Assembly: GCA_944384465.1 (NCBI GenBank)
Contig: CALWTK010000030.1
Coordinates: 1,942 to 65,941 of the forward strand
Direction: 5' to 3'
DNA length: 64,000 bases
DNA from: an uncultured Clostridia bacterium
GTDB taxonomy: Bacteria > Bacillota > Clostridia > Christensenellales > UBA1242
Part shown: positions 12,801 to 63,285 of the stretch, piece after piece
Numbering within the stretch: the stretch's first letter is position 1
How the letters are laid out: each line of letters begins with the position of its first letter
The notes under the pieces: model-generated
Seen by the model: only the letters and a program-made list of their open reading frames with translations
The model's database searches: none
What the model was told of the DNA's origin: nothing
Program-made: the position numbers and the translations under genes

Positions 12801-15800
12801 CTTATATTTGTGTATCCATATAGGGTGTATCCTGTAGGTGCTGTGCTGAATATTGAAATATATTTCGTTCCTGTCGCTGTATTATATGGATAAAAGCGTG
12901 TTATTGAAGCACTTGTTCCGTTGTAATAAAAATGTACACTCCTGCTCCATACTGCATATAGATTAGATGTTGTACTTGCCGCCGACACATCAATTGTCCT
13001 TGAAGTGTATATGGTAGGACTATTACCCCCTTCGCTAGGTGAACTTGCTGCCCAGCCATGGAAATTAAACCCATCTAGAGTAGGAGTGCTAGTAGTAGCG
13101 CTTGCCGTGATAGACGTGATTGAGCCATTGTATGCACAATATACTGTGTTGCTTGTAGTATAGGCAACAGTACTTGAAGTCGCATAATGATTTAATGTGA
13201 GCGTCCTGCTCCATACTGCATAGTATGCAGTGTTGCCGGTAGGGGTCTGCGTGCCGCTCGTCCATGTCGCACTTGTCCCTGTGTTAGACGTTGTCCAACC
13301 CATAAAATTGTATCCGCTCCTGCTCGCCGGCTTATATGACAAGCTGGAGTATGTAGGTGTTCCTGCTAAGCCTCCTGTTGTTGCTGTTCTTGATGATGAT
13401 AAATCATAATTATAATATTTCGCCACATCTGTATATGGTATAGTCTTTGTCGTGTTTCTTGTATTTGACACCCCGCTCGTTGTGTAGAATGTATGTGTTA
13501 AGGTGCTTGTAGAACTTCTCGTACCGCTCGTGTCACTCCATACCGCATAGTATGTCGTGGCTGATGACGGTGTCTTGCTCCCGCTCGTCCATGTAGCAGT
13601 CGTTCCGCTACTTGATGTAGTCCAACCTTCAAAACTATACCCGCTCTTGCTCGCTGTCCTATATGATAGAGTTGAATATGATGTGGATGATAGACTGCCC
13701 CCTGTGGTGCTAGTTGTTGATGAAGTCAACCTATAGTTATAATATTTTCTAACACCAGTGTATGTCGACGTCTTAGTCGTTGACACTGGAGTATATGACC
13801 CCGACGCAGTATAAAACTTGTGGGTAATGCTTGAACTCGATGTCCTGGTCCCATTCGTGTCTGACCAGACGGCATAATAAGATGTATTAGATGTAGGAGT
13901 CTGCGTGCCACTCGTCCATGTTGGTGATGTGGATGTGGTGCTTGTCGTCCAACCTTCAAATCTATACCCAGACACGGTCGTACCGAAAGTCAATGGTGAA
14001 CTCAAAGATGAATATGTACTGCTCCCAGCTGTGCCACCAGTCGAAGCTGCCCATACAGTTGATCTATCACATGCCAGATATCGTGTGACGCCAGTATATT
14101 CTCTGGTTCTAGTGGTAGTTGTTGTAGTATAACTGGTGCTACCTGGTGTTCTATAAAATCTATGAGTATAAGTAGATGTCTCCGTCCTAGTGCCGTTATT
14201 GTCATATTTCCAAACGGCATAATAGATTTGAGAATCCGTGGAGTTATTGCCATTATAAATAGTAAATATATTGTTAGCCGTACCAGCTGTAACCATATTT
14301 GTATTTGCACCTAAGAAACCAGTAGTTGTTGTAGCAAAACCACCACCTGTATACGATCTAGAAAGCCCAGCATAAGTATAACCGCTAGGGACAATTATCT
14401 TTGGACTCCCATCCGTAGTAGGATTATACGTATCAAATAGGCATTGATAATATGAATAGCCTGAAGTTGATCCTGTTCTATATTTAATTTGTCTTTCATA
14501 ATATCCACAATTAAAGGTGTTTTGTCCATGATTTATAAAGGTAGCTGTATTATTATAAATTGTTGATGAATAATAATCAGGTGAATAATATGCTAAATAA
14601 AAATGAAATCTCGATGGAGTATTATTACCATTGTATATCCCTCCGCCAGTATATGCAGTATTATTGTAAATATAAAAACCATCTTCAAGCCTTCCCCATT
14701 CATGTGGTAGTGCTGTATCAGGGTGATCCGTGTATGCATCCCACAAATGAAAATCTCCTAGAAAATATACCCCACCACCATATTGAGCCTCATTGTTTGT
14801 TATATACCCTTGAAAACACGTAATATTTCCATAATTCGTTGATTGATATACACCTCCTCCATAATTAGAAGCAGTATTTCTGTCTATCTGTGCCCACGTT
14901 AACGCCATCCAGTACCCGCCATAATCATATAATTCTGAAAATATATAGATTTCTGATGCATACACTCCACCACCATTAGTAGCCGAATTATTATAAATCG
15001 AAGTGCCGTACATCTCATATTTCCCACTAGTGTTGATTTGTCCTGCGAGAGGTTTTACATATTTAGAATTGGAAGCAGTCCTCAGATAGGACAATGCCTG
15101 CAAGGTAGGAGCGTCAGCCTCTTCCACGCTAAAATACACGCCACCGCCATCACCTTCCGTTGAGCAATTGGATATGGTGACATGGTTCGTGGACAAGTTA
15201 TTGCCAAAGCAATAGATACCGCCACCATCTTTTGTAGCCGTGCAGTTCAAAATCTGTCCACCTTCTAGATGAGTCTCTGTCTCTACGAGATTGAGACACA
15301 TTGCTCCGCCATATCCGTCAGCATTGTTGACATTGTTTTTCAAGATGACATTGTCGTACATCTCTACAGTGTTGCCCTGCGAATATACAAGGGCATTTGT
15401 GGTCAGATTTTCTCTTGTCACTCTCTCACGTTCGCCATCTAGCACAATGGTAGGTAGGTCGTCCGTGCGCACTAAGTTGTTGTCATCATCCGCTTCGCTG
15501 CTAGCGTTTTCATCCCCTAGCACTAGAGTCGAGCTATCTGTACCCACTATTAGAGACAGTGGATTGCTGTCGCCACGTACAACGCTGGTATCCACGCTAG
15601 TGTTCAACGTCACTGCACTTGTTCCACTCGCTACCGCTGTGTCTTCCATGAACACTTTCTCTACTATGATGTTCACTTCAGCTGTTTGATTGTCTATGAC
15701 GCTATCAAACGCGTCCGCTATCGTCTCTGCGTTGATGATCTCGCCTGTGGTCTCGTTCTTGACCGTATTTTCATAGCATGAACCTGTCATGAATACTTTG

Positions 15801-16825
15801 TTGAATCGAGTTAAAATTGGGTAGTTGAAACTAAGTTCTGTGCTGCCTTCTCTATATGAATAATCACACCAAGTCTTCTCTAAATTGTATTCTGCTGCAT
15901 AGTCCCAGCTATAGAATTGGGACACACTGGTAGCTTTGATGAAGTTATCAGTAGAGATATGGTCGCTGTCGCGCCTAGCGATACCATTCGTGTCTCCAGT
16001 AAAATAAGAGTGAGAGACATATATAGTGTTCGCTTCAGAATGATTGGCGTTGGCATAACCGATTATCCCACCGACCGTGTTGCCTGAGATCTCCACATCC
16101 GCAAACGAATTGGTGACATAGTGATTCCCGTCAGTGGATAGCAGCATGCCCACAATTCCGCCGACAGTAGCCGCTCCGCTGATGGAGCCGTGGTTCACAT
16201 ACGTGTTGTGTATATCTGTATTGACCGCTTCTGCGACAATGCCGCCAACGTATTCCACACTTTCCTCAGCGGAATTGATGCTGACATTGTATAGACCTAA
16301 ATTTTGAATAGTGGCGTTCTCGACGTAATTGAAAAGTCCGTTGCCGTTGATAGTCGCGTTGAAGATAGTATAATACCCGCCGTCAAACACCCCTTGGAAG
16401 GTGGAATATGTATGAGTCTCGGCATCGACTTTCATCCCTATAGCGTCAATGCTCGCGCCTTTTAGATCAATATTCGTATTCAAATAAACTGTATAATCTT
16501 TGAAATAATCATACTGTCTGGCAATCTCGAGATCATTTACCTGACTGATGAAATAAAGAAAGGAGGCAGCGGAATTGATTGTGATAGATTTTTCATCCCT
16601 GTTGCCGAATTCTGCGCCCTGGAAATAATCTTGATCGCTGACACTTTCGCCATCCCATTCGTCAATCGACCAGTCAAGCGGATTGACCGCACCAGTCTGC
16701 GAACTCCTCCGCCTGTTTCCGTAATAGATCCCCAATGAAGTAAAAACTAGCATCAGCACCATCAAAGCAGCGATTATCACTTGCAGTGTAACTCTTGTGC
16801 TTTTTGTGGTAAGTTTTTTGCTCAT
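9806..16825 (-). CDS. 2339-aa membrane-anchored mosaic surface protein (GLUG cassette, Pmp-like GGGxY beta-helix repeats, S/T-rich YAVW modules, Listeria-Bacteroides/Flg_new-type repeats)
   Basis: SD GGGGAGGGG. N-terminal TM segment QVIIAALMVLMLVFTSLGIYY. GLUG-like motifs VGGIVAEA/VGGIVGML/VGGIIGYA. Six or more GGG(I/V)Y motifs. Repeats such as GYxFxGWTTS...YYAVWS and REGYTFIGWYTDATNGVQVY...LYAHW. No LPXTG. Confidence 0.85.
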   Translation of the reverse strand: MSKKLTTKSTRVTLQVIIAALMVLMLVFTSLGIYYGNRRRSSQTGAVNPLDWSIDEWDGESVSDQDYFQGAEFGNRDEKSITINSAASFLYFISQVNDLEIARQYDYFKDYTVYLNTNIDLKGASIDAIGMKVDAETHTYSTFQGVFDGGYYTIFNATINGNGLFNYVENATIQNLGLYNVSINSAEESVEYVGGIVAEAVNTDIHNTYVNHGSISGAATVGGIVGMLLSTDGNHYVTNSFADVEISGNTVGGIIGYANANHSEANTIYVSHSYFTGDTNGIARRDSDHISTDNFIKATSVSQFYSWDYAAEYNLEKTWCDYSYREGSTELSFNYPILTRFNKVFMTGSCYENTVKNETTGEIINAETIADAFDSVIDNQTAEVNIIVEKVFMEDTAVASGTSAVTLNTSVDTSVVRGDSNPLSLIVGTDSSTLVLGDENASSEADDDNNLVRTDDLPTIVLDGERERVTRENLTTNALVYSQGNTVEMYDNVILKNNVNNADGYGGAMCLNLVETETHLEGGQILNCTATKDGGGIYCFGNNLSTNHVTISNCSTEGDGGGVYFSVEEADAPTLQALSYLRTASNSKYVKPLAGQINTSGKYEMYGTSIYNNSATNGGGVYASEIYIFSELYDYGGYWMALTWAQIDRNTASNYGGGVYQSTNYGNITCFQGYITNNEAQYGGGVYFLGDFHLWDAYTDHPDTALPHEWGRLEDGFYIYNNTAYTGGGIYNGNNTPSRFHFYLAYYSPDYYSSTIYNNTATFINHGQNTFNCGYYERQIKYRTGSTSGYSYYQCLFDTYNPTTDGSPKIIVPSGYTYAGLSRSYTGGGFATTTTGFLGANTNMVTAGTANNIFTIYNGNNSTDSQIYYAVWKYDNNGTRTETSTYTHRFYRTPGSTSYTTTTTTRTREYTGVTRYLACDRSTVWAASTGGTAGSSTYSSLSSPLTFGTTVSGYRFEGWTTSTTSTSPTWTSGTQTPTSNTSYYAVWSDTNGTRTSSSSITHKFYTASGSYTPVSTTKTSTYTGVRKYYNYRLTSSTTSTTGGSLSSTSYSTLSYRTASKSGYSFEGWTTSSSGTTATWTSGSKTPSSATTYYAVWSDTSGTRSSTSTLTHTFYTTSGVSNTRNTTKTIPYTDVAKYYNYDLSSSRTATTGGLAGTPTYSSLSYKPASRSGYNFMGWTTSNTGTSATWTSGTQTPTGNTAYYAVWSRTLTLNHYATSSTVAYTTSNTVYCAYNGSITSITASATTSTPTLDGFNFHGWAASSPSEGGNSPTIYTSRTIDVSAASTTSNLYAVWSRSVHFYYNGTSASITRFYPYNTATGTKYISIFSTAPTGYTLYGYTNISSFTNNTTTAPSRISYSTNTNNIVTTAASTTVYAVYMRTWTFHVDGNTTETRNAYYMYNVGASASYSQSYSPTKSGYTFVGWTTSETGTTASSSNVSLTTESGSWYAVWRSNAQSSGIVTGSPSTGTATYTLTFNGNNNTSGSTNDVLGTINISYSRVRTYYLQYNYDLSISTPVGESYGSNYESGRTYPTLTLPSNGFIRTGYTFTTWALGSATGTTYAVGSRYTPTSGTSATMYAVWDANDYILTFNANGGTLSGNETYIVTYDSTNYNSMSSIIPTREGYTFIGWYTDATNGVQVYNANGQAVEGDYWAMSGSDLVWHHDGDVTLYAHWTARPYNVTTGISDGTASITVADIGSYGEGLSISWAAKEDTEQYTYTLDNVCVYAGTDTSGTLLATYTSGTSATYVMNGTYYENIYIYVTHTATVNRYDVTIVSNNTTYGTVSIGQVNVPYGSVVQTDGNIILIGSETVTATANTGYHFSSWTAPSTITGTTTITAVFAPDTDTAYTVRHYWQNVDDDEYTLHETENLTGATGAQVTPIVKTYTGFNSPSTQTVTIAADGSTVVEYRYTRQTYTVNLQTGTGVTSVSGGGTYRYEKEITINAVLTEGYDWRNWTGTTTISTQQATITVTQNMTLTANADIKVLVVTITAGTGGQVSETSVEVNYGTAVSVDGATLTIGTTVVTATANSGYEFDSYLNVPETVTSNVTITAQFAEIVNVTIEVQGEVGTASYGIKVNNGETISTSGTVRKGSTINIVGATEPGDEENNTYQLVAVYVNDALSMRPVSGTIDNRAGTTIESIESDTTIRFVFSEGYRMNISATEDTNVDSIEISTDLDKITADGIIATDAEVTITIDENTLKGSNTDRTYIGMIYTLESGETVSVLNGGDDYVHKDDISVGDGLFVYTIKENVIIEDIHVIVKGTEEIDVVIPEGTTVEIRSADEGFVRVLQNGTNAIFTGKWYIMLPIDAESIETIFSGYKISKETTGAYEGYHYFEL
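12080..14235 (-). repeat. About eight diverged ~105-115-aa (~325-345-nt) tandem modules, each ending in aromatic-YAVW
   Basis: YAVW-encoding landmarks occur near 14209-14230, 13863-13885, 13540-13560, 13211-13232, 12941-12965, ~12700, 12470-12495 and 12080-12105. The three central modules align by eye (THRFY/THKFY/THTFY ... GY(R/S/N)F(E/M)GWTTS ... YYAVWS). Confidence 0.75.
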
Positions 16826-17064
16826 TTTTGCCCCTCCCCTTAAAACAAAACAATCTTTATCTTAGTCTACACTATTTCGACAAAAAAGACAAATCATTTT
16901 TCCGTAATATGCCATTATGCCATATTGTTTTTTTGATAAATTTATGAACTTTCGGTAATGAACATTAACCTATAACTATTTATACAAGCGCGATCATCAA
17001 TTTTCTTTAGACTCACAGAGTAAATCTATAAATATTATCTCTAAAAGTCGCAATAAATATTAAA

Positions 17065-17314: not shown

Positions 17315-18349
17315 ATGAAAAAAATAAAGGACACTATCACTGAAGACACTGTCACGAAGGAAGAGACCACAATGAAGAAGCCTAATTTGATCAAACGCGC
17401 ATTCAGCAGATTGAAAACTGCATTGAAAAATGCAAAAATTTCAAAGAAGATTGCCACTCTTAGTTTGACGACCGCGCTGGTTGTCAGCGGGATCACATTC
17501 GCAGGCTGCTCTAACGACAGCCATAACCCAGGTCCAGGTCCTGGCCCTAACCCAGGCCCGATCGAATCTGGCTATAGTCAAATCATGGACACTGTCTTGA
17601 ATGACGAATATTATACAAGTTTGGTAGACAACTTTACCTATGAAGACAATAGCAGTGCTTACTATGACCCACATCCTTATGGCTTCCTAGAAGATGAAGG
17701 CTACAATATAGATGATATCAAGAATGGCACCCTAAAATGCTACTCCACCTCGTATATGAAAGATGACGGATACTATATCCGCACTATGGTGGAGAACAAA
17801 GCGTCTACCGACTACTACGGCTGCTACATAATTAAATATGACTTGACCGACCAGGAAAAAGATGAATTGGATATGCTGTTTGAAGACGAATATATCCAGA
17901 CTCCACTCTACATCCAAGAGATCTCCAACCAAAAGTCAGCATCCGTCCAGTCCGAAGCATATATCGCTAAAACTGCTTACGAATCAATCCTAAATAGAGT
18001 AAAAGAAGTTAGTGGATATAGTGAAGAAGTTTTAGGCACAAATAATGTTGATATATTATATCTTGGAAATTATGTCGATGGGGCAGAAGGTAGTTGTGAT
18101 ATTCAAATATATGTCAGAAATAGCAATCTAACTATGGGGAGACTAAAAGGCAGAATGGGCACTTGTAATATATCTACAATTGGTAGTATGGGATTTCAAA
18201 ATATAAATGGACGCCAAGTTTTGATAAATCCTACTAACGCTTGGACTTCACCTAGTGATAGTTATGAATCATATGTAAATAGCATAGAAGAAGTTGATTG
18301 TTATAATTGTCAAAACGTTAGCTTGTCTATGGAGTATGAAGTTAAATAA
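17315..18349 (+). CDS. Putative lipoprotein with Pro-Gly linker, function unknown
   Basis: SD AGGAG. Signal region with lipobox ...LVVSGITFAGC|SND, followed by NPGPGPGPNPGP. An alternative start is M20 (17372). Confidence 0.75.
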   Translation: MKKIKDTITEDTVTKEETTMKKPNLIKRAFSRLKTALKNAKISKKIATLSLTTALVVSGITFAGCSNDSHNPGPGPGPNPGPIESGYSQIMDTVLNDEYYTSLVDNFTYEDNSSAYYDPHPYGFLEDEGYNIDDIKNGTLKCYSTSYMKDDGYYIRTMVENKASTDYYGCYIIKYDLTDQEKDELDMLFEDEYIQTPLYIQEISNQKSASVQSEAYIAKTAYESILNRVKEVSGYSEEVLGTNNVDILYLGNYVDGAEGSCDIQIYVRNSNLTMGRLKGRMGTCNISTIGSMGFQNINGRQVLINPTNAWTSPSDSYESYVNSIEEVDCYNCQNVSLSMEYEVK

Positions 18350-46178: not shown

Positions 46179-47369
46179 CTATATATGGATTTCTTCTAAT
46201 TTTTCTTTTTGTTGATTAGACAGCTTTATCTTGCGTCCTTTTTGATATTTTAACCACAACTTTTCTTTGCTATCTAATTCAATATTTTGGGTCAATTTGT
46301 ATTTTACTCTATCAAACATATCATCCCAATTTTTATCTTTTATCGATTGAAATTTATCCATCAAAACTTTTCGATTGGCATCTGGAGTATTCCTATTCCT
46401 AAGCCACCATTTATACAGATATGGATCATTTCTATATAAATCAGTTAATGAAAAATTGTGCTCTTCATAATATGCTTTCACTCTGTTATAAGAGCGAAGC
46501 CACTTTCGGTCGCAAGCTCTTTGAACTAAACTATTAGTCACTCTTGGATAATTAGAAATCTTATCCAAAATATCTCTTTGATGGGCGGATAAATTCGTCC
46601 TTTTTTTACACCTATAGAACCATACTATGAGTTTATTTTTCTTTTTTGATATAGACTTAAGAGTCTCGCCTTGTGCTAATAAAGACAAAATTTCTTGTGC
46701 GTTTTCTTCGAAAAATTTTTCTTTTTCCGCGACTATACTTTGCTCATAAGATTTTATAAATGTTAATAAAACTTTTTTTAATTTAGCATCTTTTATATCA
46801 GAATGTTTAATCGTCTGTTTTTTCCCTTGCAGATAATAATACAGCTCTGGATTCTCAATAAGTAAATTCTCCAAACTGCCATGCTCTTCGAGATATTGAT
46901 CCAGCAACTGCAAATTTTGCCTCAGCCTATAATTATCGCCATTATATTGCAGTTTTGCCTTAGCATAACTCAGTTTTTGTTTTTTGTCGTCATCCAATTC
47001 GTCATATTTGATTAGGATATTTCTATACCAAGCGAATAGATTTCCATCCATTTTCCTCAACTGTGTTAAATTATAGCCCTTCTTGATAAATTTCAATATT
47101 TTAGCATAATTTTTTGCAAAAACATAATTTTTATAATTATTTTGCAATTTATTTATTTTATTTTTTTGATTTTCTGTTAAATTTTTATTTTTCTTTTGTC
47201 TCATCAGCCATTCGTATAATTCATTATTAAATTTTTCTAAACCATAAATAGAAAAATAATTGGAAAGATAATAATCATATATTTGATTATATTTCTCCTC
47301 CCATTCTCCGTTTGTTGAAATAATATTTTCAATTAAATTAGTCATATTTACCTTATATTTATTTTGCAT
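46179..47369 (-). CDS. Protein made only of helicase-associated (HA, PF03457-like) domain repeats
   Basis: 396 aa (388 if it starts at M9, 47345, which has an AAGG SD). It has five or six ~65-aa units with a W/Y...(Y)...L..W(L/Y/F)..(Q/R)(K/R)...L...Q...L pattern, for example EWEEKYNQIYDYY...LYEWLMRQKKNKNLTENQKNKINKL. No helicase core is present. Confidence 0.55.
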   Translation of the reverse strand: MQNKYKVNMTNLIENIISTNGEWEEKYNQIYDYYLSNYFSIYGLEKFNNELYEWLMRQKKNKNLTENQKNKINKLQNNYKNYVFAKNYAKILKFIKKGYNLTQLRKMDGNLFAWYRNILIKYDELDDDKKQKLSYAKAKLQYNGDNYRLRQNLQLLDQYLEEHGSLENLLIENPELYYYLQGKKQTIKHSDIKDAKLKKVLLTFIKSYEQSIVAEKEKFFEENAQEILSLLAQGETLKSISKKKNKLIVWFYRCKKRTNLSAHQRDILDKISNYPRVTNSLVQRACDRKWLRSYNRVKAYYEEHNFSLTDLYRNDPYLYKWWLRNRNTPDANRKVLMDKFQSIKDKNWDDMFDRVKYKLTQNIELDSKEKLWLKYQKGRKIKLSNQQKEKLEEIHI

Positions 47370-49099: not shown

Positions 49100-49127
49100 A
49101 ATAAAAATATAAAGCCACGCGGGCTTT
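49100..49127 (-). terminator. Intrinsic terminator closing the SipW operon
   Basis: Minus strand: AAAGCC-CGCGT-GGCTTT followed by ATATTTTTATT. It overlaps the stop of the 271-aa ORF. Confidence 0.55.
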
Positions 49128-49941
49128 ATACTCTTTCAAAATAAGTGTGCACTTCCATTTTAAAATTATCTACATTTAAAGTGTTTTCATATTCATAATC
49201 TAAAATGACACCTTCAAACAAATGTACAGTTGTATTCCCATCTACAGGAACTTTGCTATGATAATAATTATCATTGCCTAAATAAAAATCGTCCCTATTT
49301 GGTTCATATATCAATATGTTGTTTAATAATTCTTCCCCTTGATAAACGAGCACTGTAAAACGAACATTATACTGTCCCTCGCTTTCTAATCTTGCATACG
49401 TATCTATCTCCAAAACTCTATTACCTTGCAGATTTGATGGAGTCCTGAACCTAGACAATTCTTGTCCGTCAACTATATATGTCGCCTCACAATCTCCATG
49501 AGCATAAAGAAAGCAATTATTATTTAAGTATATAGTAGCAGCGTAAATTGAAATGCTAGCGATGGCTATTATCAATAAAACAACTAAAACTATTATTATC
49601 GCTCGATTACGCCTAGACCTAAATCTATATGCTTTTATATTCTGTTCATTTAATTCTTCTAGATCTTCCAAATCCATTATACTGGACTTTATACGAGTTT
49701 TTGATTCCTTGGAATCATTTTCAGAATTATTGTTATTTGTTTGAGATTGTGGCTGTGGCACACTAGTATCTCTTTTCTTTTCTACATTATTTGTTTTAGA
49801 TTTTGAATACTTTTTAATTTTTGATTTATGTTTTGAGTCTTCGGTAGCTTGGTTTGATTGCTTATAACGTTCTATTTTATAGTCCATATATGTATCAAAT
49901 GGCAAATCACTTTTTGTCATATCGTTAAAATCTTTTCTCAT
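49126..49941 (-). CDS. Type II single-pass membrane protein: disordered K/S/N-rich cytoplasmic tail plus ~140-aa extracellular beta domain
   Basis: 271 aa. The TM segment AIIIVLVVLLIIAIASISIYAATIY follows the basic stretch RFRSRRNR. It is the last gene of the SipW operon. Confidence 0.75.
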   Translation of the reverse strand: MRKDFNDMTKSDLPFDTYMDYKIERYKQSNQATEDSKHKSKIKKYSKSKTNNVEKKRDTSVPQPQSQTNNNNSENDSKESKTRIKSSIMDLEDLEELNEQNIKAYRFRSRRNRAIIIVLVVLLIIAIASISIYAATIYLNNNCFLYAHGDCEATYIVDGQELSRFRTPSNLQGNRVLEIDTYARLESEGQYNVRFTVLVYQGEELLNNILIYEPNRDDFYLGNDNYYHSKVPVDGNTTVHLFEGVILDYEYENTLNVDNFKMEVHTYFERV

Positions 49942-49957
49942 AAACTACCTCCTTTTA

Positions 49958-50629
49958 TTAGACTCCTGGATCTACATCAAACCCCTCAATAGTTATAATC
50001 ATTTTAAAATTATTTCCACTGATAGTAGGATATTCACCATCAAATTCAAAATTCGAATAACTAATTGTAAATGATGTCATCAAATTGACGTCTTCATTTA
50101 AGTCAAAAATTTGATTTTCACCACTAGCATTTTGATAGTAATAATATCCATTCGAATACACGAAACCATTGCTAGTCTCTGTAGGTGCTATAAACCCTGA
50201 AATATTGCTATCAAGTAAAATGTCGTCCGAATTATAATTGCTGACATAGAATTCTATCTTGTATCTCAAATATACTGATTGAGTACCTGCGTCATTATTG
50301 ACCAATTTTAATGTCAGTGAGTTTTGCACATCTGGAATTATTTCTTTCGTCCCAGCTCCATTGGTTATATCAACATAACTAGGAGTAGTCGAAGTCTCAT
50401 TTTCATTAAATGTTCTGATTAATATTTCATCTCCGCTATCCATCACTTGATATACCGACAAATTCATCTGCCCAATGTTGACAATACATTCGATTTGCAG
50501 TCCCTGTCCTGATGTAAACCACGCACTAGTGACTCCGACAAAAGCGAGTAAAAGACCTACCAGTATCACTAATACTGTCAAAACATTTAATGAAGATACG
50601 ACCTTAATTCTTTTCAATTTTAACTCCAA
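49958..50629 (-). CDS. TasA/camelysin-like secreted protein with SipW-type signal peptide (paralog 2)
   Basis: 223 aa. Its N-terminus is MELKLKRIKVVSSLNVLTVLVILVGLLLAFVGVTSA|WFTS. The core is beta-rich (YLRYKIEFYVS). Confidence 0.7.
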   Translation of the reverse strand: MELKLKRIKVVSSLNVLTVLVILVGLLLAFVGVTSAWFTSGQGLQIECIVNIGQMNLSVYQVMDSGDEILIRTFNENETSTTPSYVDITNGAGTKEIIPDVQNSLTLKLVNNDAGTQSVYLRYKIEFYVSNYNSDDILLDSNISGFIAPTETSNGFVYSNGYYYYQNASGENQIFDLNEDVNLMTSFTISYSNFEFDGEYPTISGNNFKMIITIEGFDVDPGV

Positions 50630-51291
50630 TTTGCTGAATATCCCCAGCCATCATTAAACACAGCTAAATATGCTTGATTAGCACTTTGCACTGCTTCAAA
50701 TTCAATATATAAACGAACCTGTGAATTCAATAACTCTACCGGCGCAGTCTCAAGCAAGGTTATACCTGTCGCGAAAATCATATTTTGACCTGCACTTATA
50801 GTATTGTTCATATAATAAATGGTATTTGTAACGCTACCTACAGTCTTCAAACTAGTAGTAAATACGTTACTTTCAATTTTGAAATATTGACCGAAATTTA
50901 CAGTATTATCAATGTTGCCATCTACCACCTTGTACGCATTAATTCTAAATCGTATATAACTGCTACAAGAATCATTAGACGCATTGAACGCTAAATATTC
51001 CAAATCTGTACCATCTGCCAATGCCAATTCAAAAGTCGTACCTCTCGCGATTGTGCCACTAGAATCACTTGGTCGAACGGACAAAGTATCATCATTTACC
51101 ACTATTGGCGAATTTGGGCTGCTGACAGTTGTATAAGCAAATCGCACATTTAAGTTTGAGAAAGTTATATCTCCAGTAACCTGATGCGATGATGTAAAAT
51201 ATGAATATGTGACATTGAAAGCGAACAAAAAGATTAGCGCCAATACGACGAGTAGTCCAACTATTTTAATCTCCTTGTTCTTAATCTTCAT
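50620..51291 (-). CDS. TasA/camelysin-like secreted protein with SipW-type signal peptide (paralog 1)
   Basis: 223 aa. Its N-terminus is MKIKNKEIKIVGLLVVLALIFLFAFNVTYS|YFTS. It also has YIRFRINAYKV and, near the C-terminus, LYIEFEAVQ. Confidence 0.72.
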   Translation of the reverse strand: MKIKNKEIKIVGLLVVLALIFLFAFNVTYSYFTSSHQVTGDITFSNLNVRFAYTTVSSPNSPIVVNDDTLSVRPSDSSGTIARGTTFELALADGTDLEYLAFNASNDSCSSYIRFRINAYKVVDGNIDNTVNFGQYFKIESNVFTTSLKTVGSVTNTIYYMNNTISAGQNMIFATGITLLETAPVELLNSQVRLYIEFEAVQSANQAYLAVFNDGWGYSANWS

Positions 51292-51305
51292 ATCCTTTCC
51301 CTTCT

Positions 51306-53729
51306 TTAATTAAAATATTCATCAAATATTTGTTGTACTTGTGTCCCCCAGCTATTTAGCGTCGAAGCTGAATATTCCCCTGTGTCTAATATCGTTTCAA
51401 GCTTGACGCTAGACGATGTAGTCATAGGGATTTTCACTACTTGGCCTGGTCTAACTATGCCAATATAATAGTTATATCCATCAATTGTCACGACATTAGG
51501 GACTGAACTTGTCTCCATGTTACCTGTAAATCTGACATAATATGATGAGGTAGAATTATTTATTATATACGCGCCACTGGTGCCTTCATCTATTATATTT
51601 ATTGATGTGCTAACTGCACTAGAACTGCCCACTGCGGTACTATTGAATGTTAGATACCCATTTGTAGAGATTGTTACTGAAGCAATTTTGACAGTCTCAT
51701 TAGGTTGTATCGTCAAATCTGCAGCTGCAAATTGATACCCACTACCCGATGATGGTGTTCCTGTTGTTGACAATGTAAAACCATTATATAGTGTCGCATT
51801 AGTGAGTGAAATCAATTCTCTCGAATATGACAAAATATAATATTGCAGTTGTGGATTCCATGCGCTATTTGTGTTTTGCTTGTATGTCCCAGACGCTGTA
51901 TCGTAATAATAATATCTCCAATAACTAGAAGCCCAATCATCTGGCTGTGCGCTGGTTGATGCATAATTTGCTACATTTCTATTTGCCACTAATTCTGCGG
52001 AAATCCCAGTAATCGCTTCCATACTATAATTTTTCACACTGAATGTAAGTATAGTATTACTTCCACTGACAATCGCGCTTGTCTCTACTGAAAGTGCTGT
52101 AGAGGTCGACGTGTCATTCGAATTGTCTATCTCGATTTCAGGTACTAGTACCACCCAAAAATCATAGGTCCCATAATTAGATATGATAGTATTCCTAAGT
52201 GCGTCATTTACCACGAATTGTTCCAACACATTAACTGTAGAGTATGGCGCAATATAACTGGTAAGGTTGATCGCGTTTGCTGTAAAATCTGTTGAAGATG
52301 TTGTGGTGCCTGTATCCCTATACCATAGCGTTGGATTATCGAAGCTCCCAGCATCGCCCGAAATTTGATCTCCAATGATAGATGTCTTCGCGTTAGAAAT
52401 ATAATATCTTAAGGTGAAACTTACGCTGACACGAATTTTATTAGCTGTATTGTTAGTGATACTGACGTTAGTGTCAAAGGTCTGCCGACCACCACCACCC
52501 AAAGTGATATCATATAGTCCTGCTTGATATAATGACGTATTGACGACACTTACGACATTATGGGTGCTTGGATCATATGTCCCTACCGTTACTACATCAG
52601 TTGTATTGACAATGTTGCCTACGAGAATATTTGTTTCGTTTTCAGAAGTCGAAAATGTATTAAATGCTACATCATTGATGTTGACTTCTGTAATAATTAA
52701 TTTGTGATTGCTGTAATCAGATTGAGCTAAGTTACCACGACTGATTATCTCTACACTATCCAAAATATTGATATATAGTGCAGTATTTTCAGGAATGATT
52801 AAATTGTAAGTGTATACCTCAAAGGTATTGTCCGCCAACTTATTTTTAAACACCCAACCTGAAGAATAATTGAACAATATGTTATTGTCGTTAACCGTCG
52901 CAGAACCACCATTTTCTGTACGCCAAGCGCCAAGAACGCTAACTTTCAAAGTTATAGGTGAGGAGCCATTTATAATATACATTCCGACTCCGGCATATGC
53001 CTTGTTTCCACCTGCCCAATTGGCGCTGGAGACAGTAGAACCTGTCATCACCTTTTGATATGCTGATTCTACCCCCGGATGAGAGACTCCGTGACTCAAA
53101 TTATAACGTGAATTATATACAATCACATGAGCGCCAGATAGTGATGACCTATTCTTATATTGAATCCAGGCGTCTCCTGCCACACTATCCACATACAAAT
53201 CATGTGAAGTTGTATAAGTCGAAGTCGATTTCCTGATTTTCACTTCATCGATGTTTATTGTCAACGAATCACCTTCATATGTGGTATCCGTCGTGTCTGT
53301 GAAACTTACCCCAGTAAATACTGTCAATGTGTCCGTCCCCGCTGGGATTGTCTCGGTATAATAGATGTATTCATTGTCCACTATGAAGTTATTTCTATTA
53401 GCATAATTTAATATTACATTCGAAGTATCTGCTCCGCTTGACCAAGATAGACTATATTTAATCCTGATATCAAAAGAGTAACTGAATGAATATTGAATAG
53501 CCACTTCATAATTGCGTGCACCTGTACCAAAAGGTATAGGAGTTTTTTCTGTGTCATTGATCACGACATACGATTGTTTAGCTGCATAAGCTGTCGTATT
53601 ATAACTATTACTCCCCAGCGACATATTGACTATCTGAGCTGCATAAGTTATTCCCATAGTACATGCAAAAACCACCGCCAAAATGGCAGCTATAATTGAG
53701 AACCAATTTTTCTTAGTTTTTGCCCTCAT
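51306..53729 (-). CDS. 807-aa secreted S/T/N-rich protein with TasA-like signal junction (candidate large fibre subunit or tip protein)
   Basis: Its N-terminus is MRAKTKKNWFSIIAAILAVVFACTMGITYA|AQ. The only Cys lies in the signal peptide. Its ATG directly abuts the sipW stop codon. Confidence 0.75.
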   Translation of the reverse strand: MRAKTKKNWFSIIAAILAVVFACTMGITYAAQIVNMSLGSNSYNTTAYAAKQSYVVINDTEKTPIPFGTGARNYEVAIQYSFSYSFDIRIKYSLSWSSGADTSNVILNYANRNNFIVDNEYIYYTETIPAGTDTLTVFTGVSFTDTTDTTYEGDSLTINIDEVKIRKSTSTYTTSHDLYVDSVAGDAWIQYKNRSSLSGAHVIVYNSRYNLSHGVSHPGVESAYQKVMTGSTVSSANWAGGNKAYAGVGMYIINGSSPITLKVSVLGAWRTENGGSATVNDNNILFNYSSGWVFKNKLADNTFEVYTYNLIIPENTALYINILDSVEIISRGNLAQSDYSNHKLIITEVNINDVAFNTFSTSENETNILVGNIVNTTDVVTVGTYDPSTHNVVSVVNTSLYQAGLYDITLGGGGRQTFDTNVSITNNTANKIRVSVSFTLRYYISNAKTSIIGDQISGDAGSFDNPTLWYRDTGTTTSSTDFTANAINLTSYIAPYSTVNVLEQFVVNDALRNTIISNYGTYDFWVVLVPEIEIDNSNDTSTSTALSVETSAIVSGSNTILTFSVKNYSMEAITGISAELVANRNVANYASTSAQPDDWASSYWRYYYYDTASGTYKQNTNSAWNPQLQYYILSYSRELISLTNATLYNGFTLSTTGTPSSGSGYQFAAADLTIQPNETVKIASVTISTNGYLTFNSTAVGSSSAVSTSINIIDEGTSGAYIINNSTSSYYVRFTGNMETSSVPNVVTIDGYNYYIGIVRPGQVVKIPMTTSSSVKLETILDTGEYSASTLNSWGTQVQQIFDEYFN

Positions 53730-54371
53730 CTATAAAAACAACCTCCTTGTCCTACGAACATCAAATTCGTTTTGAACTGTGGCGCTAACGCACCAAATGG
53801 ATAGAATTATTGCAATGATCAACAATTTATGGTCATTGATGAAACTAAAATAGCTTCCCCAATTGTTCAATGTAGCGACCACTTTGCCTTCAATATCTGC
53901 TTCTGTAACGATTTGAACATGGTTGACTAATTTGTGACCGCTCTCATCTTTTCCGTTCAAGATTTCTTCATAAGTCATATCTGCTAGCCTGTCTATCTCC
54001 CACTGATAATCTCCAATATGATCATACGAGCCGTCTGTATTTTGATTATTGTCTCCATGGCAGATATAATAGGTCGTGCCTTGATATTCTTTGATAGCCA
54101 CCAATCTATGAGTCGTAGGGGTGCCATTATGATCAAATTTAATGATATCTCCCAACTCGTAACTATCTTGTGCCTTTACAATGACCATATCCCCAGCTGT
54201 GAAATAGGGAGCCTGACTGTTTGACAATACATTGTATGGTCTAAACTTGAAGCCATATACCAAAATCAGACAAACAGCCAGCATGATACAAATTGCTACA
54301 ACTATATTATACATCAGTTGTTTGAAAAAGTTAAACGATTTGTTTTCCAATATTTCATCACTGTAATTCAT
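53730..54371 (-). CDS. sipW: Archaeal/ER-type signal peptidase I (SipW family)
   Basis: 213 aa. It has an N-terminal TM segment, a Ser box VLSNSQAPYFTAGDMVIVK, a His box TTHRLV, HGDNNQNTDG, and a C-terminal TM segment LLIIAIILSIWCV. Confidence 0.8.
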   Translation of the reverse strand: MNYSDEILENKSFNFFKQLMYNIVVAICIMLAVCLILVYGFKFRPYNVLSNSQAPYFTAGDMVIVKAQDSYELGDIIKFDHNGTPTTHRLVAIKEYQGTTYYICHGDNNQNTDGSYDHIGDYQWEIDRLADMTYEEILNGKDESGHKLVNHVQIVTEADIEGKVVATLNNWGSYFSFINDHKLLIIAIILSIWCVSATVQNEFDVRRTRRLFL

Positions 54372-54382
54372 TTTCTCCCCTT

Positions 54383-57300
54383 TTAAATTTCATAACAGCC
54401 AGATACAGTTATATTAGTTTGTGTGCTTGTTCCATATATACCTATTTGATTTACACCCGTCTGAGTGAGCGTGGTCTGTTCAATAAACGCATAGCCTATA
54501 CCGCAATCAGTTACTTGACAATTCACATTCCCAGTACTTGCTGTCCTCAAGGCACCTGCCACTGCGCCAATGTTGATTGATTTTGTCGCATTGACTATTT
54601 GAATATTGAATTCCATAGTCACTTGTGCTTCGTTGATGATGACGCTCTGTCCGGTACCGACTATTCCGCCCATATTAGTGTCCACATTCAAGCCCTGATG
54701 TGTGGCTGTCCCTGTCGATGTACAACCATCAATAGTTATCTTGTTAGCAAATCCTACAATTCCGCCTATGTATGCTGAATAAATGTTAGTGATGTTCATG
54801 TTGACAACTGCATCGTACACACCGCTCGTCCTAGCATCTTCGCCATTCATATATCCTACAGCTCCACCGATATAAGTAAATCTCCTATTAGTTACGCCTT
54901 GAGATAGTGTGAAGTTTATCTGTGAATTCCTGCTAGATGAAGATGTGATAGTCGTCGACTCTGCATTCGCAACCACACCACCAATATACGAGCCTCCTGT
55001 CGAGAAGTCAGCATTGAACTGAACATCCACGTCTACTAGCAAACATCCGGATATTGTGGTCGAAATCGTATTAGCGAACAATCCACCAATGTAGACGTCA
55101 CCTTGTAATGTACCATTGCCCGCGATGATGAACGTCAGATTGTATACCGTCAAATCCTCTATTGTGGAATTAGTTGAATTGATTGCTACTAGACCTAATT
55201 TTAACACATCTTGAGTGTTGTTGGCAAATGTATTTGATATAATTATTTCTTCTGTTGATGCTCCTATAATCAAATTCTTGATTGTGGCACCATTGATACT
55301 ATTGAACAATGCCAAACTGCTGACGCCATTTACATTGATTGTGTTCAAACCATGTATTGAATAACCGCCACCATCAATATAACCATAGAACTCATCACAT
55401 ATAATATACCCATTTGTCTCTATTCTACTAGCGATGTTCGAACCAGATAAGTCTATTGCTGATATCAACTCATAATAAGCGCTGTTGAACCTGCCGATAT
55501 TGAACAATTCATCTGCACTATCTAATCTATACGGATTATCTTCAGTACCTGCACCATAACTGAACAAATTGAAGTTTAGATCATCTCCACTGCTTGCGTC
55601 TGAGTACATGCTTCCTTCACGTTCCACTTGCACGACAAAGTCTGTAATCATACCCATCTCTGTAGGTGCATAGAAGTAATATCTAACTCCATCTTCTATG
55701 AAGTAAGCCCCTGACTGATTGTATCTAATATTGACTGTGACCATAGTCGCCGTGCTGGATAGCACCACATTTCCTGCTTCAGAGCGAATATATGGTCTAA
55801 AGTTATATGAGATTCTCAAGATGTCAGTTTCACCAAAGTCGTCTGCCGTCTGCCAGTAGTATCTATAATTTGTATCGTCAAACATCACAGCACCGACTGC
55901 GTTTGGTCTATCTTTTGAACTCACAAATGTAGCAGAATCGCCATTGAATACGTATCCATATCCGACACCAATTGCCTGCACTGTTACAGAATATTGTCCA
56001 GTCATACCTACAGGAGCTACACATGAATTGTTAGACTCTCCTTCAATTTGTTGTTCAACAACCAAAGGATCCCCTGCCGAATTAGTATAATTGAAGGTGA
56101 CAATGTAACCTTGTGCACCATCCACCACATCCCAGGTCATAGCTGCAGGGTTGGTCTCATCTATTCGAATATTTGCGACCATCGCCAACTTTGTGAATGT
56201 ATTTGTAGATACAGTGTTCCTTGCTGTGATCATTGTGTCACCTACCGCTCTGATCTCTATGTTGTAATCGCCTGCTAGTATACGCTCACTGTCGTCAGAC
56301 AAAGTTGTTTCAAAATCTATCAATGTGTCGCTAGTCGTGAAGGTATAAGTATTGTCTCCGCTAGTCATCACCACTTCGTATGACACAGCTCCGTCCACTC
56401 CTGCCCATGACAACATGCCATCCATTGATGTAATAGATGTATCATTTACTCTCGCCACTCGGTTCATAACGATCGCATCAGTAGGATTCGAATTCAAAAT
56501 AGCTGTACTAGAATTTGAATTTCCTACAACATACAATACTACCGAATAATTAATACCAGAGTCTATGTATACAGAAGAATTCGTGCCTGAAATGTTGTAT
56601 CTAGAATCGGCGAACCTATAATAATGATATTGATATACTCCGTTGTCATACTGTGCTGTTCCGTTCGAGTTTATTAAGATACGGACATCTTGATAATTGA
56701 TGTCCTGATAGGTGAGAATAATGTTGACTGTAGAGTAGTTGTCTAGATCGGCCACTCTCCATTTTAACACACCATCTTCAATCACCACACTGTTATCTAT
56801 AATGCCCCTTGATTTTACAAAGGCAAGGGTTATATCCGTTCCGTTAGTCTTGGCATATGCGCCATTCAAAATATATTGATTTGCGTCTGTCGCTATTGCT
56901 TTGATTTTGATTGTATATTCGCCCGCATTGTTGATCTCTATCATCTCTCCGCTAATTTCAATGCTTGCTGGGATCTCATAAGTAATCTTGTGATTTACGC
57001 TATCCACCGTCACTCCTTCGCTATCGCGGTTGATAGTATAAACATATTCTTGTCCACTAGTCACATCATATAATGTGATTTCATAGTCATATATGTAAAT
57101 TGTCTGATTGATCCCTTGTACTGTACCTAAATTAAATTCTAGCACTCCAGAGTTGCTTGATATAGTAGTATTTGAAATCTTTCTGAATGTAAATGATGTG
57201 GTAGGTTGTTTTGAATTCAACAGATAGTTAGCATCATCTTCGTTTCCTGTCGTGCCTATACCTGCTAAGGTCTGTACTTGCACATTATACGACCCGGAAT

Positions 57301-60300
57301 TGAATACATAGTCTCCATTGCTGTTCAAATAATTCGAAAAATCAAACAATATAATATTTTCATTCGTCTCATCATAAGTCACTTGAACATAGTACCCATC
57401 CGCATTGTTTGTGATCTGTCTAGCTTCTTCTTCATTGGTATAATACAGATATACCACCGTCGTATCTTGCGAATTTAATGGTGTAATAGACAATTTATAT
57501 ACAGGATAATCTAACACATTGTCATACTCATCCCTAGGAGATTGATTTTCTAGCCTTATCATGCCGTTATATGATGACAATATGTTGTCCCCATATCTGA
57601 TGAATGTATTTGATGAGTTGATATTCGATGTCAAATAACCTGATTGAGCGATTATAATATCAGATGCCGATTCAGTCTGAATAACGCTATCCCCGCCGAG
57701 CATGCTGACTCTAATCACGAATGTGCCCCCTGACGCTAGGTCGATAGTCACAAAGCCATTATCTGCATCTACTCCTGTATATACGAATTCGCCATCTTGT
57801 TTTGCCACATTGATTGGATAATAATATAGCGCATCATAATCTCGTAAATTAATATAGTTGTTTTCAAACACATTGAAGTATAAATATCTTGTCTCTTGGT
57901 TATACGTATATGCATATCTGACATAAGCACATAGTCCATTCATCTCGCCGCTAAAAGATACATAATCAGATGTAGTCAAAGTAGAATTCTCTATTGCCGC
58001 CATGAATAAATAATAATCCACAGCATAAATGTCGTACGAAGAAGTAGATGTTGTGATATTCAATTTGTAAATGACGGTCTTGTTCCAGAACGAATTTGTG
58101 CTCAAATTCTCTTGCCCGTTGAACTGATAATTGAAGTTTGAATTGTCGTATTCATCTTCATAGCCGAACTGCAACACACCAGCCTGCACTTCGAACAAAG
58201 CATTTTTCAATTTTACAGAATTCAATTCGCTGACACCGATGGACTTCTTCGAACTTATTACACACAATACGCTGTTAGAATTCCCAACAAGTCTAATATT
58301 TATTGTATAGTTTCTGCCTGACATAATGTTCAATATGTCATTATCCAAAATCTCTACAATAAATTTGTAGCTAGTATTTAATTGCGCTTCACGTCCGCCA
58401 TCAACTTCATCTTGCCAACTTTGGATATCTGCAAGTGCCGCTTCGGCATCTTCAGCTCTTGAGTATATTAGACGCTCTGTTCTATCACTACTTTCTGTAT
58501 CTACAAACTCTATTTCCGCTTCGCTAAAATACTGATTCGCATACAAAATCAAACTGCCATCATCTATTGTCACTTGTTCAATTTCTGGCATACGATACAC
58601 TTGCATGATCTCGCTTGTCTGACTATTCAATATGTTAGCTTTGTTACTGATAGCTTGTACAGAAACGCCATAGACTCCATATAGGTCGGCGAATTCTGCG
58701 TTTGAGAAATCAAATTCAGATATAGTGACAGTGTCTAGCCCTATTTCTGTCTCGAAATCATTGGCATACACACGCACAATATAACTCGTAGCATTATCAT
58801 TCGCCGTCCAGACTATACGTCCCTGATCTGCGAACAAGGCAGGAGTGTCCATTATAGTTATAGTGTAGCCAGTCGAATAAGCAGACGAACATAAATTGTA
58901 GTTTGAGATTGTCTTTGGGACTTCTTTCACATAGATTGTATAAGTATTAGCTCCGAATATCTCGTCACCAGAGACTGTCCCATTCCCATCCGCATCATAG
59001 CCATATGGGAAGATGATGTTTGTATCAATTATAGTTGATGGGTAAGATAGATAATTATTACCGCTCGATTGATCTAAATATTTCAAATTGCTATCATTGC
59101 TATAGCGAGTCACCTTGTTGTCGCCCGTTCCTATCTCTATTTTGAAAATATATCCGTATGTTAAATCCTCACTATTCAAAACATTATTTGCATTACCCGT
59201 CCATGAGATATGATCAACATATTCTGAAACGTCAACATTGCTTGTATATTTGCTGATATTCGTAGGACTCAGTAATCCGTACACTTCTATAGAAGTAGAA
59301 TTCGAATTCATATAATATACGCTGTTTTCTACATCTTCATATTCCACACGGATAGATACAGATAGATTTTCTCTAATCAGTGAAGTTGTGCCATAATTCA
59401 ATACAATATATGGGTCTATTGTTATCCTGCTGCCATTTAGACTCACTCCTTCGCTATCTAAATTCAAGGATACTTCTCTAGTGCCATTTAATATGACTAT
59501 TGCGCAATTTACCTCTGCATTTTGCAACAATGTGACCACATCGCTTGACACGCTTAAAATTATATCCCCATTTTCTATAGATACGACTGGAGTAGCAAGC
59601 TTATTTACATTGATAGTCTCACTCAAATTTGAATTGGTGTACTGCCCGGCGAATGAAATGGATTTTATGGCAATTTCAAGATTCCCACTTTCGCTTGACA
59701 GGTCATAACTTAATGATGTCAAAAGACTTGAATTGATTTTCTCAAAGCCATCCGCCACCCTTTTGTAGACTTCGTACCCGACTGCGTTTGCCACAGGAGA
59801 GAAAGTCAATATTCCGTTGCTGACGCTGATGTTTGATACTGACTCTATCTTTATGAACATCAATTCATTGGACACACTAGACGAGAATACATATATCGTA
59901 TCTAGTTCTTGATTGAATTCAGCGTTCGCCACTACATAAGCTGAAACGTATATATTCCCTATTAGGTCAAATTCATCAAGATTAAACGAGATGGTGGACT
60001 CATCTACATTTTGATACCTTTGCGTAACTAAATTAGTCTTATTTCCTCCCTCATCTTTGTTGTAGATTTCCACAACATATTCAGTGTCATAATCCACCTG
60101 CTCTACAGCAAAAGAAATGACTACTGAATTGTTATCCGAATTATTATCTTTTGAAGAGGTAAGTTCGATCTGTTGCGCCCTTGTGAAAAGGAGTTCATCA
60201 CTGACCACACTCAAAGTTAAATTTGCCTCATTAGAATTCGTATTGAGCGTGACCACTGCAATAGTATTAATCTCCTTTATATATTCATTAGGTACATTAT

Positions 60301-63250: not shown

Positions 63251-63285
63251 TTTAACCCCTTTTATGTCATAACTCATCTAGGAGT

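Follow-up and report, generated by a model that had tools for sequence, protein, structure and literature searches.

Six co-directional genes on the minus strand of contig CALWTK010000030.1, from an uncultured Clostridia bacterium, make up one operon in a Christensenellales bacterium of the gut and encode, in order, a giant predicted lipoprotein, a SipW-like signal peptidase of 213 residues, an 807-residue protein, two 223-residue proteins (here called par1 and par2) and a 271-residue membrane protein. The operon lies in a 64,000-nucleotide stretch of the contig, the whole of which was analysed and is referred to below as the window. Its gene order, including the position of the giant gene, is conserved across related genomes, and we lean towards the explanation that the dedicated SipW-like peptidase, together with its probable private substrates and partners, would build a surface filament in the style of TasA and Tafi. 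Christensenellales are heritable, health-associated gut bacteria. Filaments of the TasA superfamily that assemble by donor strands have been described in Bacillus, Clostridium and several archaea (PMC9674648, PMC11580942, PMC12337348, PMC9245690), and our literature search returned no mention of names beginning with Christensenell together with TasA, SipW or camelysin.

Conservation of the six-gene block

An earlier note on this DNA, made from its letters alone, had described six minus-strand genes with almost no DNA between them and the giant gene adjoining sipW. The open reading frame (ORF) coordinates and the junction sequences confirm this layout: the spacings down the block are 11, 0 (a TAG stop directly followed by ATG), 14, −10 and 16 nucleotides, and Shine-Dalgarno-like motifs sit within the 3′ end of each preceding gene. 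Several contigs from animal-gut metagenomes contain the same DNA. Scanning the genomes of species representatives gave 14 loci, all in Christensenellales metagenome-assembled genomes labelled Candidatus Onthoplasma, 'uncultured Christensenella sp.' or 'uncultured Clostridia'. Identical six-gene order and tight spacing were found in 13 of these 14 species-level loci, at protein identities to the window that range from ~90% down to ~29%; in one locus (L011) the upstream DNA is cut off and only the last four genes are visible. A giant ortholog stands 5′ of sipW in all 13 loci that show this flank, and the 13 giant proteins are orthologous over about 2300 residues, their C-terminal GLUG-like region included.

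A profile search of 1.84 billion representative proteins extended the par1 family to 158 clusters at 50% identity, and the contigs behind a few of the most distant members were retrieved. L024, from a much more distant metagenomic lineage, carries a giant ORF of at least 2792 residues that is homologous to the giant protein of the window, followed in order by a 170-residue SipW-like protein (47.9 bits against TIGR02228, slightly below the cutoff), a 973-residue homolog of the 807-residue protein, one par protein and a 273-residue homolog of the 271-residue protein. In the short contigs L022, L026, L027 and L028 a large protein is likewise followed by par, (par2-like) and an anchor-like protein, and the family of the 271-residue protein is kept in the distant loci L024, L027 and L028. 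Because the order recurs across genomes and in the distant L024, the block is a real, selected gene module that includes the giant gene; the adjacency of the giant gene and sipW that the earlier note had seen in one sequence is present in every related genome showing the upstream flank and in L024.

Size variants occur in three of the genome loci. In the two most divergent ones, the par2 ortholog is enlarged to 587 residues (L019:10694-12457) and 424 residues (L020:10612-11886) by a C-terminal extension, with a junction, NVTGAWFTD, that is nearer to the canonical SipW-type motif. At L017:11360-12688 the ortholog of the 271-residue protein has 442 residues, with an extra C-terminal region.

The signal peptidase and its candidate substrates

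Signal peptidases of the SipW type are recognized by a catalytic Ser box (SxSMxP-like), a His box and a GDN-like box, flanked by N- and C-terminal transmembrane (TM) segments. The identification of the 213-residue protein as a SipW relative, proposed in the earlier note, holds up in the scan against TIGR02228, where it scores 59.5 bits against a cutoff of 51.85; it also exceeds the cutoff of Pfam Peptidase_S26 (26.4 against 22.9 bits). The peptidase boxes S-x-S-[MQ]-x-P, [TV]-H-R and H-G-D (Ser/His/Asp) are conserved in 13 orthologs and read SNSQAP (SDSMAP in most orthologs), THR and HGDN in the window, with TM segments at residues 15-45 and 181-201. The equivalog model for the Bacillus enzyme, NF046067, gives 37.7 bits against a cutoff of 190, far below it. 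On these matches the protein is a SipW-like signal peptidase I (SPase I) of the endoplasmic reticulum/archaeal type, and not an ortholog of B. subtilis SipW.

The genes for par1, par2 and the 807-residue protein adjoin a TIGR02228-type peptidase gene in the window, in the 13 related loci and in L024. As the earlier note had supposed, the two 223-residue proteins are, by sequence comparison, paralogs of one small family with a common N-terminal junction: they share 27% identity (BLASTP, E = 6e-5), and par2 scores 76-77 bits on the family hidden Markov model (HMM), although par2 itself is among the 137 sequences aligned for it. In par1 the signal ends in the junction NVTYS/YFTS (the slash marks the proposed cleavage site) and the C-terminal part carries the motif FEAVQ..N.AY..FNDGWGY; par2 has the junction GVTSA/WFTSG, of which W-F-T-x-G is invariant in 15 orthologs, and is without the FEAVQ box. 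The length of par2 is about 219-223 residues, with other gene callers giving 203-219 residues, and its start codon is uncertain. The common junction T-[YS]-[SA] / [YW]-F-T is among the most conserved positions in the 137-sequence alignment, the leading columns being T28, S/A30, Y31 (4.1 bits) and F32 (4.3 bits); conserved core residues are R114, Y159 and Q202, the last within the FEAVQ box. AlphaFold2 (AF2) predicts a beta-sandwich for par1 (predicted local distance difference test score, pLDDT, of 80), with a helix at residues 6-33 and no assigned structure at residues 31-48, and the mature N-terminal segment YFTS..G.I.F..L.V.F.Y is conserved and alternating-hydrophobic. Neither par1 nor par2 matched any Pfam or NCBIfam family in scans that were repeated, as for the proteins below, at E <= 10, and the sole source name found among their relatives was 'hypothetical protein', for one relative.

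The 807-residue protein has a signal with the junction GITYA/AQ, which is kept in orthologs. Its AF2 model, made with database homologs, is a confident all-beta, multi-domain arrangement of beta-sandwiches (pLDDT 85; predicted template modelling score, pTM, 0.83) that begins with an N-terminal helix, followed by residues 38-51, which are conserved but unstructured. Foldseek aligned the model with integrin legs, complement/alpha-2-macroglobulin domains and factor XIII, that is, with generic strings of beta-sandwiches at a TM-score of about 0.1. The protein matched no Pfam or NCBIfam family, and TIGR04088, the model for SipW-dependent signals, was absent from 15 of its orthologs at E <= 0.1. The signal region is the sole part that it shares with the small par proteins, so that the view of it in the earlier note, as a subunit of the same kind but about four times larger, is not supported. 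That the residues next to the junction are conserved yet left unstructured by AF2 in both proteins (31-48 in par1, 38-51 in the 807-residue protein) fits a strand in need of a partner.

The 271-residue protein has a basic, low-complexity cytoplasmic N-terminus of ~108 residues, rich in Lys, Ser and Asn, one TM segment (109-140) and an extracellular beta-rich domain of ~135 residues. It matched no Pfam or NCBIfam family. Cleavage at a look-alike junction, IYA/AT, was considered and rejected; because this junction is not conserved in orthologs, the protein probably stays uncleaved, as a predicted single-pass type II membrane protein.

Relationship to TasA and to SipW-dependent signals

The earlier note had drawn a parallel with TasA of B. 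subtilis, and one part of it stands. TasA carries the junction GGTWA/AFND and the sequence FSFEATQ, and what the par family shares with it, as far as sequence goes, is a SipW-type N-terminus and a late x-F-E-A-x-Q strand. The window proteins matched neither PF12389 (peptidase M73/TasA) nor TIGR04088 at E <= 10, nor did their orthologs match either model, and an NCBIfam scan of 15 par2 orthologs gave no TIGR04088 match at E <= 0.1. Among the 28 most distant significant relatives of par1, TIGR04088 was matched by 13, with a best E-value of 6.2e-7; a 240-residue protein of L022 was the sole one to reach the curated cutoff (19.4 against 19 bits). PF12389 was weakly matched by 9 of the 28 in a batch scan and, when 10 distant relatives were scanned singly, by 6, at 14.4-22.5 bits against a cutoff of 22.5 that none exceeded. 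The BsaA family, TIGR04090, gave a weak match in 2 of the 28. Since homologous members pass the model and since the genes stand beside that for a TIGR02228 peptidase, membership of the par proteins in the class with SipW-dependent-type signals is supported.

Homology to TasA itself was addressed with a TasA query sequence that was validated against 8AUR and 5OF1, and for which 111 homologs were collected to give a 112-sequence family. Both the single sequence and the family were compared by hhalign in local, global and low-MAC (maximum accuracy) modes. For the distant par1 subgroup, two local matches, colinear and located at the two termini, had probabilities of 13.5% and 10%, and their scores (29.6 and 28.5) were only slightly above the maximum of 26.3 from block-shuffled controls. 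The similarity in fold to TasA and camelysin that the earlier note had expected was not recovered by HMM, hhalign or Foldseek, and TasA-family membership of the par proteins is not established.

Two other known kinds of subunit were considered for par1 and rejected. Locking by an isopeptide bond of the BsaA type (an Asn-Glu-Lys triad) is unlikely because mature par1 has no conserved Lys: the invariant or near-invariant lysines K2, K6 and K9 all lie in the n-region of the signal, and K124 of par2 aligns with an Arg in par1. A type IV pilin with a class III signal does not fit either, as there is no Gly before the hydrophobic segment and no prepilin peptidase nearby, and Pilin_N was matched by 1 of the 28 relatives (E = 0.027).

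The signals bear also on whether the 807- and 223-residue proteins are cut at all, or are instead type II membrane-anchored proteins next to a peptidase that serves other substrates. Their long h-regions fill hydropathy windows of 24-34 residues, the helix modelled by AF2 continues unbroken beyond the proposed site, and the window proteins themselves are without a TIGR04088 match, all of which would suit permanent anchoring. Yet T-x-[SA] followed by an invariant aromatic-Phe pair is the most conserved feature of the family, relatives match the model for SipW-dependent signals, the peptidase is strictly co-inherited, and the one protein that truly looks uncleaved, that of 271 residues, is the one without a conserved junction; we therefore regard uncleaved substrates as very unlikely.

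The giant predicted lipoprotein

Because of the ribosome-binding site AAAAGGGG and the lipoprotein-type signal MSIIKNKKLYILILLMFCAVFIFGC, the giant gene more likely starts at Met10 (position 63250), which gives a protein of about 2955 residues. Inspection of its N-terminus reveals a lipobox, FIFGC (MSIIKNKKLYILILLMFCAVFIFG-C), in which Phe at −2 is unusual, and the protein is accordingly a predicted lipoprotein with an N-terminal lipid anchor. From the N-terminus onwards it has a Big_2 domain, an extended stalk that is all beta and a C-terminal part in which five GLUG-like [IM]GG..[GA] motifs lie; no C-terminal anchor and no LPXTG motif is present, and a search for internal repeats in the protein found none. 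The earlier note had called it a GLUG adhesin, a label that reaches sub-threshold level only: the Pfam Glug family (PF07581) scores 16.9 bits against a cutoff of 20.5, over two stretches within the last 400 residues. In architecture it resembles the giant surface proteins of Firmicutes of the GLUG/immunoglobulin A protease N-terminal type, which likewise carry repeated [IVLM]GG..G motifs towards the C-terminus, a Big_2 domain at the N-terminus and, as stalk, a very long all-beta stretch; it differs from them in its sub-threshold Glug match, its predicted N-terminal lipid anchor and the lack of LPXTG.

Two more giant surface proteins are encoded in the window, and the three together occupy about 58% of its 64 kilobases (kb). 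An ORF of 6964 residues (18431-39325, minus strand) has a lipoprotein-type signal (…VLSAC), 17 GLUG-like [IVLM]GG..G motifs and no linked signal peptidase gene, and one of 2339 residues (9806-16825, minus strand) combines a TM segment at the N-terminus with Listeria-Bacteroides (Flg_new) repeats, a weak match to Peptidase_M26_N and, close to the N-terminus, three GLUG-like motifs. Only the 2964-residue ORF is joined into a sipW operon. The giant genes are generally more GC-rich than the adjacent housekeeping DNA, with a G+C content of 0.40-0.44 across the 2339-residue gene (10001-17000) against 0.29-0.35 on either side. Between two of the giant genes and on the opposite strand, a 344-residue protein (17315-18349, plus strand) carries a lipobox-like FAGC and a GPGPGPNPGP linker and has no family match.

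A proposed filament and its alternatives

In the mechanism that we infer for these products, the 807-residue protein, par1 and par2 would be exported by Sec and held in the membrane by their long hydrophobic signals until SipW cuts after T-x-[SA]. Cleavage would free the conserved, alternating-hydrophobic N-terminal segment, which would then insert as a donor strand into the beta-sandwich of the next subunit, in the manner of the TasA, Bsa, Abp and Tafi filaments. The roles proposed for the single proteins follow from the resemblance of the part list to published filament loci of the TasA superfamily: par1 would be the shaft (the candidate major subunit), par2 a minor or adaptor subunit and the 807-residue protein the tip or nucleator, while the 271-residue protein, with a similar TM-plus-beta layout and no conserved cleavage site, would stay in the membrane and anchor or terminate the filament. 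The lipoprotein of ~2955 residues, with its GLUG-like C-terminal head, would be made from the same transcript and act as a long-reach adhesin on the same surface.

Several results weigh against this proposal. In hhalign, the 137-sequence par family reaches a probability of 7% against the TasA family, and the window-centred score of 25.4 falls within the range of 30 block-shuffled TasA controls (maximum 26.1). The PF12389 matches of the distant relatives span only model positions 12-50 of 196 (signal end, junction and first strand) and, being confined to the signal and first strand, are silent on the body of the domain. Profile searches of the PDB with the close family and with the distant subgroup returned no TasA, Abp or Tafi chains, only spurious matches to beta-trefoil designs. 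Foldseek aligned the par1 model with generic beta-sandwiches, the best being the p53 DNA-binding domain and CBM3b, with no TasA in the top 50 and the archaeal TasA homolog AbpA at rank 34 (E = 0.15). The proposed cleavage sites also fit the generic −3/−1 rule of any SPase I. Between the candidate anchor and tip, residues 106-262 of the 271-residue protein align with residues 2-165 of the 807-residue protein (24% over 169 residues, BLASTP E = 4e-5), but the likeness is unconfirmed by hhalign, which gives the ectodomain and the 807-residue N-domain 5% only, and their homology is only suggestive. Finally, no par-like, 807-like or 271-like (subunit or acceptor) domain is detectable in the giant protein.

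The first alternative that these results raise is that the same peptidase and substrates make no filament and assemble instead into a non-polymeric complex at the surface in the service of the giant lipoprotein, for example as membrane-proximal docking platform, as folding or export helper or as sheath. The constant place of the giant gene at the head of the operon, where it is invariably adjacent and tightly coupled, would find an explanation in such a complex; the complex would also sit well with the lack of demonstrable TasA-fold homology and with the compact model of the 807-residue protein (pTM as above), which does not look like beads on a string. Against it, the set of parts (a pair of small paralogs whose free N-terminal segment is conserved, a large multi-domain protein, a TM-plus-beta protein and a dedicated SPase I) fits filament loci, no domain common to the giant protein and the others was found, and the four-gene core is seen alone in short distant contigs, albeit contigs whose upstream DNA is missing. 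We consider a non-polymeric complex plausible but less likely than the filament, and give it more weight than any other alternative.

With the filament as the preferred explanation, its functional tie to the giant protein is argued from the invariable first position of the giant gene, even in L024, and the tie could range from plain co-expression at one surface to physical docking. In the most far-reaching version, filament and giant protein would be parts of one machine, in which a membrane-anchored donor-strand fibre carries, spaces or docks the adhesin of ~3000 residues; binding of the giant protein might fall, for example, to the freed N-terminal strand of the 807-residue protein or to the tip of the fibre. 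We hold this version to be improbable. If true, it would be a previously undescribed way of mounting an adhesin in a monoderm gut commensal, with no sortase and no cell-wall anchor.

Comparison with known filament systems

Among the closest known systems are the Tafi loci of haloarchaea, which encode the peptidase TafD, the pilins TafA and TafE, the tip protein TafC and the membrane anchor TafF (PMC12337348, PMC11821415). Peptidase, two small beta-rich subunits, multi-domain tip-like protein and TM-plus-beta-domain anchor correspond one for one, a likeness that is one of part list. The Tafi loci are archaeal, their products are often secreted by the twin-arginine (Tat) pathway, and they include a DUF5305 accessory protein and a regulator, whereas the present locus is bacterial, has Sec-type signals and no DUF5305 protein or regulator in the operon, and contains the extra giant lipoprotein.

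Among bacteria, the sipW-bsaA-bsaB-bsaC operon of C. perfringens encodes a secreted protein of 70 kDa and a pair of small TasA-like subunits, and in the model proposed for it a newly exported, still-tethered monomer gives its N-terminal region to the growing oligomer before release by SipW (PMC11580942). The resemblance lies in the class (Clostridia) and in the set of genes, in which sipW precedes those for a pair of small proteins, TasA-like in the bsa operon, and for a single large secreted one, all with signals presumed to be cut by SipW. The differences are that BsaA is locked by its Asn-Glu-Lys isopeptide triad while the mature part of par1 is without an invariant Lys, that BsaC has a VWA domain and the 807-residue protein none, and that the bsa operon has neither a membrane anchor gene nor a giant lipoprotein gene. 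The tapA-sipW-tasA operon of B. subtilis (PMC9674648; PDB 8AUR, 5OF1) also contains a SipW-type peptidase, and TasA, which polymerizes by N-terminal strand donation (donor strand residues 28-38) after priming by TapA (PMC9674648), has a comparable junction, T-[WY]-A / aromatic/Ala-F, and a comparable late strand, [FI]-x-F-E-A-x-Q. Its genes differ in number and order, and TapA, an accessory protein proposed to prime and anchor the TasA fibre (PMC9674648), is cell-wall associated and not an integral membrane protein.

The archaeal AbpA/AbpB and the AbpX systems (PMC9245690; bioRxiv 10.64898/2026.01.04.697558) likewise pair a major subunit with a larger TapA-like or tip protein that has distal beta domains, often next to a TIGR02228 peptidase, minor subunits and anchors; AbpX loci are described with SPase I, minor subunits, tip proteins and anchors (bioRxiv 10.64898/2026.01.04.697558). 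The bacterial anchors cited for AbpX are of the SLH or LPXTG type and its peptidase has ten TM helices, in contrast to two TM segments and a single-pass anchor here. The reading of the earlier note, a fibre with an anchor, fits published architectures of the TasA superfamily, but the combination has more precedent than the note had claimed: multi-subunit loci with a dedicated peptidase, a tip and a membrane anchor have already been described. In the papers on TasA-superfamily loci cited here, we found no description of a constant linkage to a giant lipoprotein.

Operon boundaries and neighbouring DNA

The coordinates of the six genes and of the candidate transcription signals are collected in Table 1. 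The hairpin and T-run that the earlier note had placed after the last gene are well supported, with a 14-bp stem, a folding free energy of −14.8 kcal/mol and a z-score of −3.6; none of 200 shuffled sequences folds equally well. At the other end, the promoter-like TTGATA-17-TAAACT that it had named is present, but is not the sole site of its kind, as equal or better same-strand matches lie inside the operon, for example at 60819-60790, 55227-55198, 54334-54306 and 53264-53236. Because these internal sites are as good and because the total count of promoter-like sites in this DNA is at chance level (82 observed against 85.7 ± 10.3 expected), the evidence from such sites is neutral. The giant gene and a divergent plus-strand gene starting at 63518 are set apart by 240 bp of AT-rich DNA, and this gap does support a promoter 5′ of the giant gene. 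The divergent gene, with a sigma-70 consensus of its own, fixes the upstream boundary of the operon; that consensus is a perfect TTGACA-17-TATAAT (63456-63484, plus strand), and the N-terminus of the gene product (63518-64000, plus strand), CGPTVY…HIGN, resembles a class I aminoacyl-tRNA synthetase, probably CysS.

Table 1. Features of the giant lipoprotein-sipW operon (window positions)
Feature	Position	Strand	Remarks
Giant lipoprotein gene	54383-63277	minus	ORF of 2964 residues
SipW-like signal peptidase gene	53730-54371	minus	213 residues
807-residue protein gene	51306-53729	minus	candidate tip/nucleator
par1 gene	50620-51291	minus	223 residues
par2 gene	49958-50629	minus	223 residues, TTG start
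271-residue protein gene	49126-49941	minus	candidate membrane anchor/terminator
Promoter-like TTGATA-17-TAAACT, TG-extended	63286..63314	minus	9/12 consensus match, 5′ of the giant gene
Intrinsic-terminator-like hairpin and T-run	49103..49135	minus	overlaps the stop codon of the 271-residue protein gene

The surroundings of the locus also touch on a possible role in sporulation, as a spore coat or spore appendage. TasA homologs have been named 'spore coat-associated protein N', and a gene for SpoIIID is found on the same contigs at a distance of about 8 kb; the locus itself contains no sporulation promoter or regulator, and a lipid-anchored giant adhesin with a membrane-anchored subunit better suits the surface of a vegetative cell. 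We see only a slight chance of such a role, lower even than that of uncleaved substrates, and the idea is compatible with the filament model and not exclusive of it.

Elsewhere in the window, a Lys-rich protein of 396 residues (46179-47369, minus strand) with repeated helical units and a weak match to the helicase-associated (HA) domain is encoded between Suf genes and aspS. A ribosomal protein L10 leader (RF00557, 64.2 bits) lies at 9279-9408 on the minus strand, and the ORFs downstream of it, 8776-9261 and 8367-8738, are presumably rplJ and rplL. A 574-residue protein (5149-6873, plus strand) consists of BspA-type leucine-rich repeats (LRR_5, E = 2e-25), with no obvious signal peptide at the called start.

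Significance

The system is of a known kind, in which a dedicated signal peptidase of the endoplasmic reticulum type and its private beta-sandwich substrates build a surface filament or matrix. What appears to be new is the four protein families without a Pfam or NCBIfam match, the occurrence in gut Christensenellales and the conserved joining to the gene for a lipoprotein of ~3000 residues. If the filament model fails, the operon would still be a conserved surface module of uncultured gut bacteria. If it is true, the operon would represent a bacterial counterpart of the archaeal Tafi layout, with peptidase, tip, major and minor subunits and TM anchor; it would supply new families for annotation, and it would raise the question of why a lipoprotein of ~3000 residues is always the first gene of such an operon.

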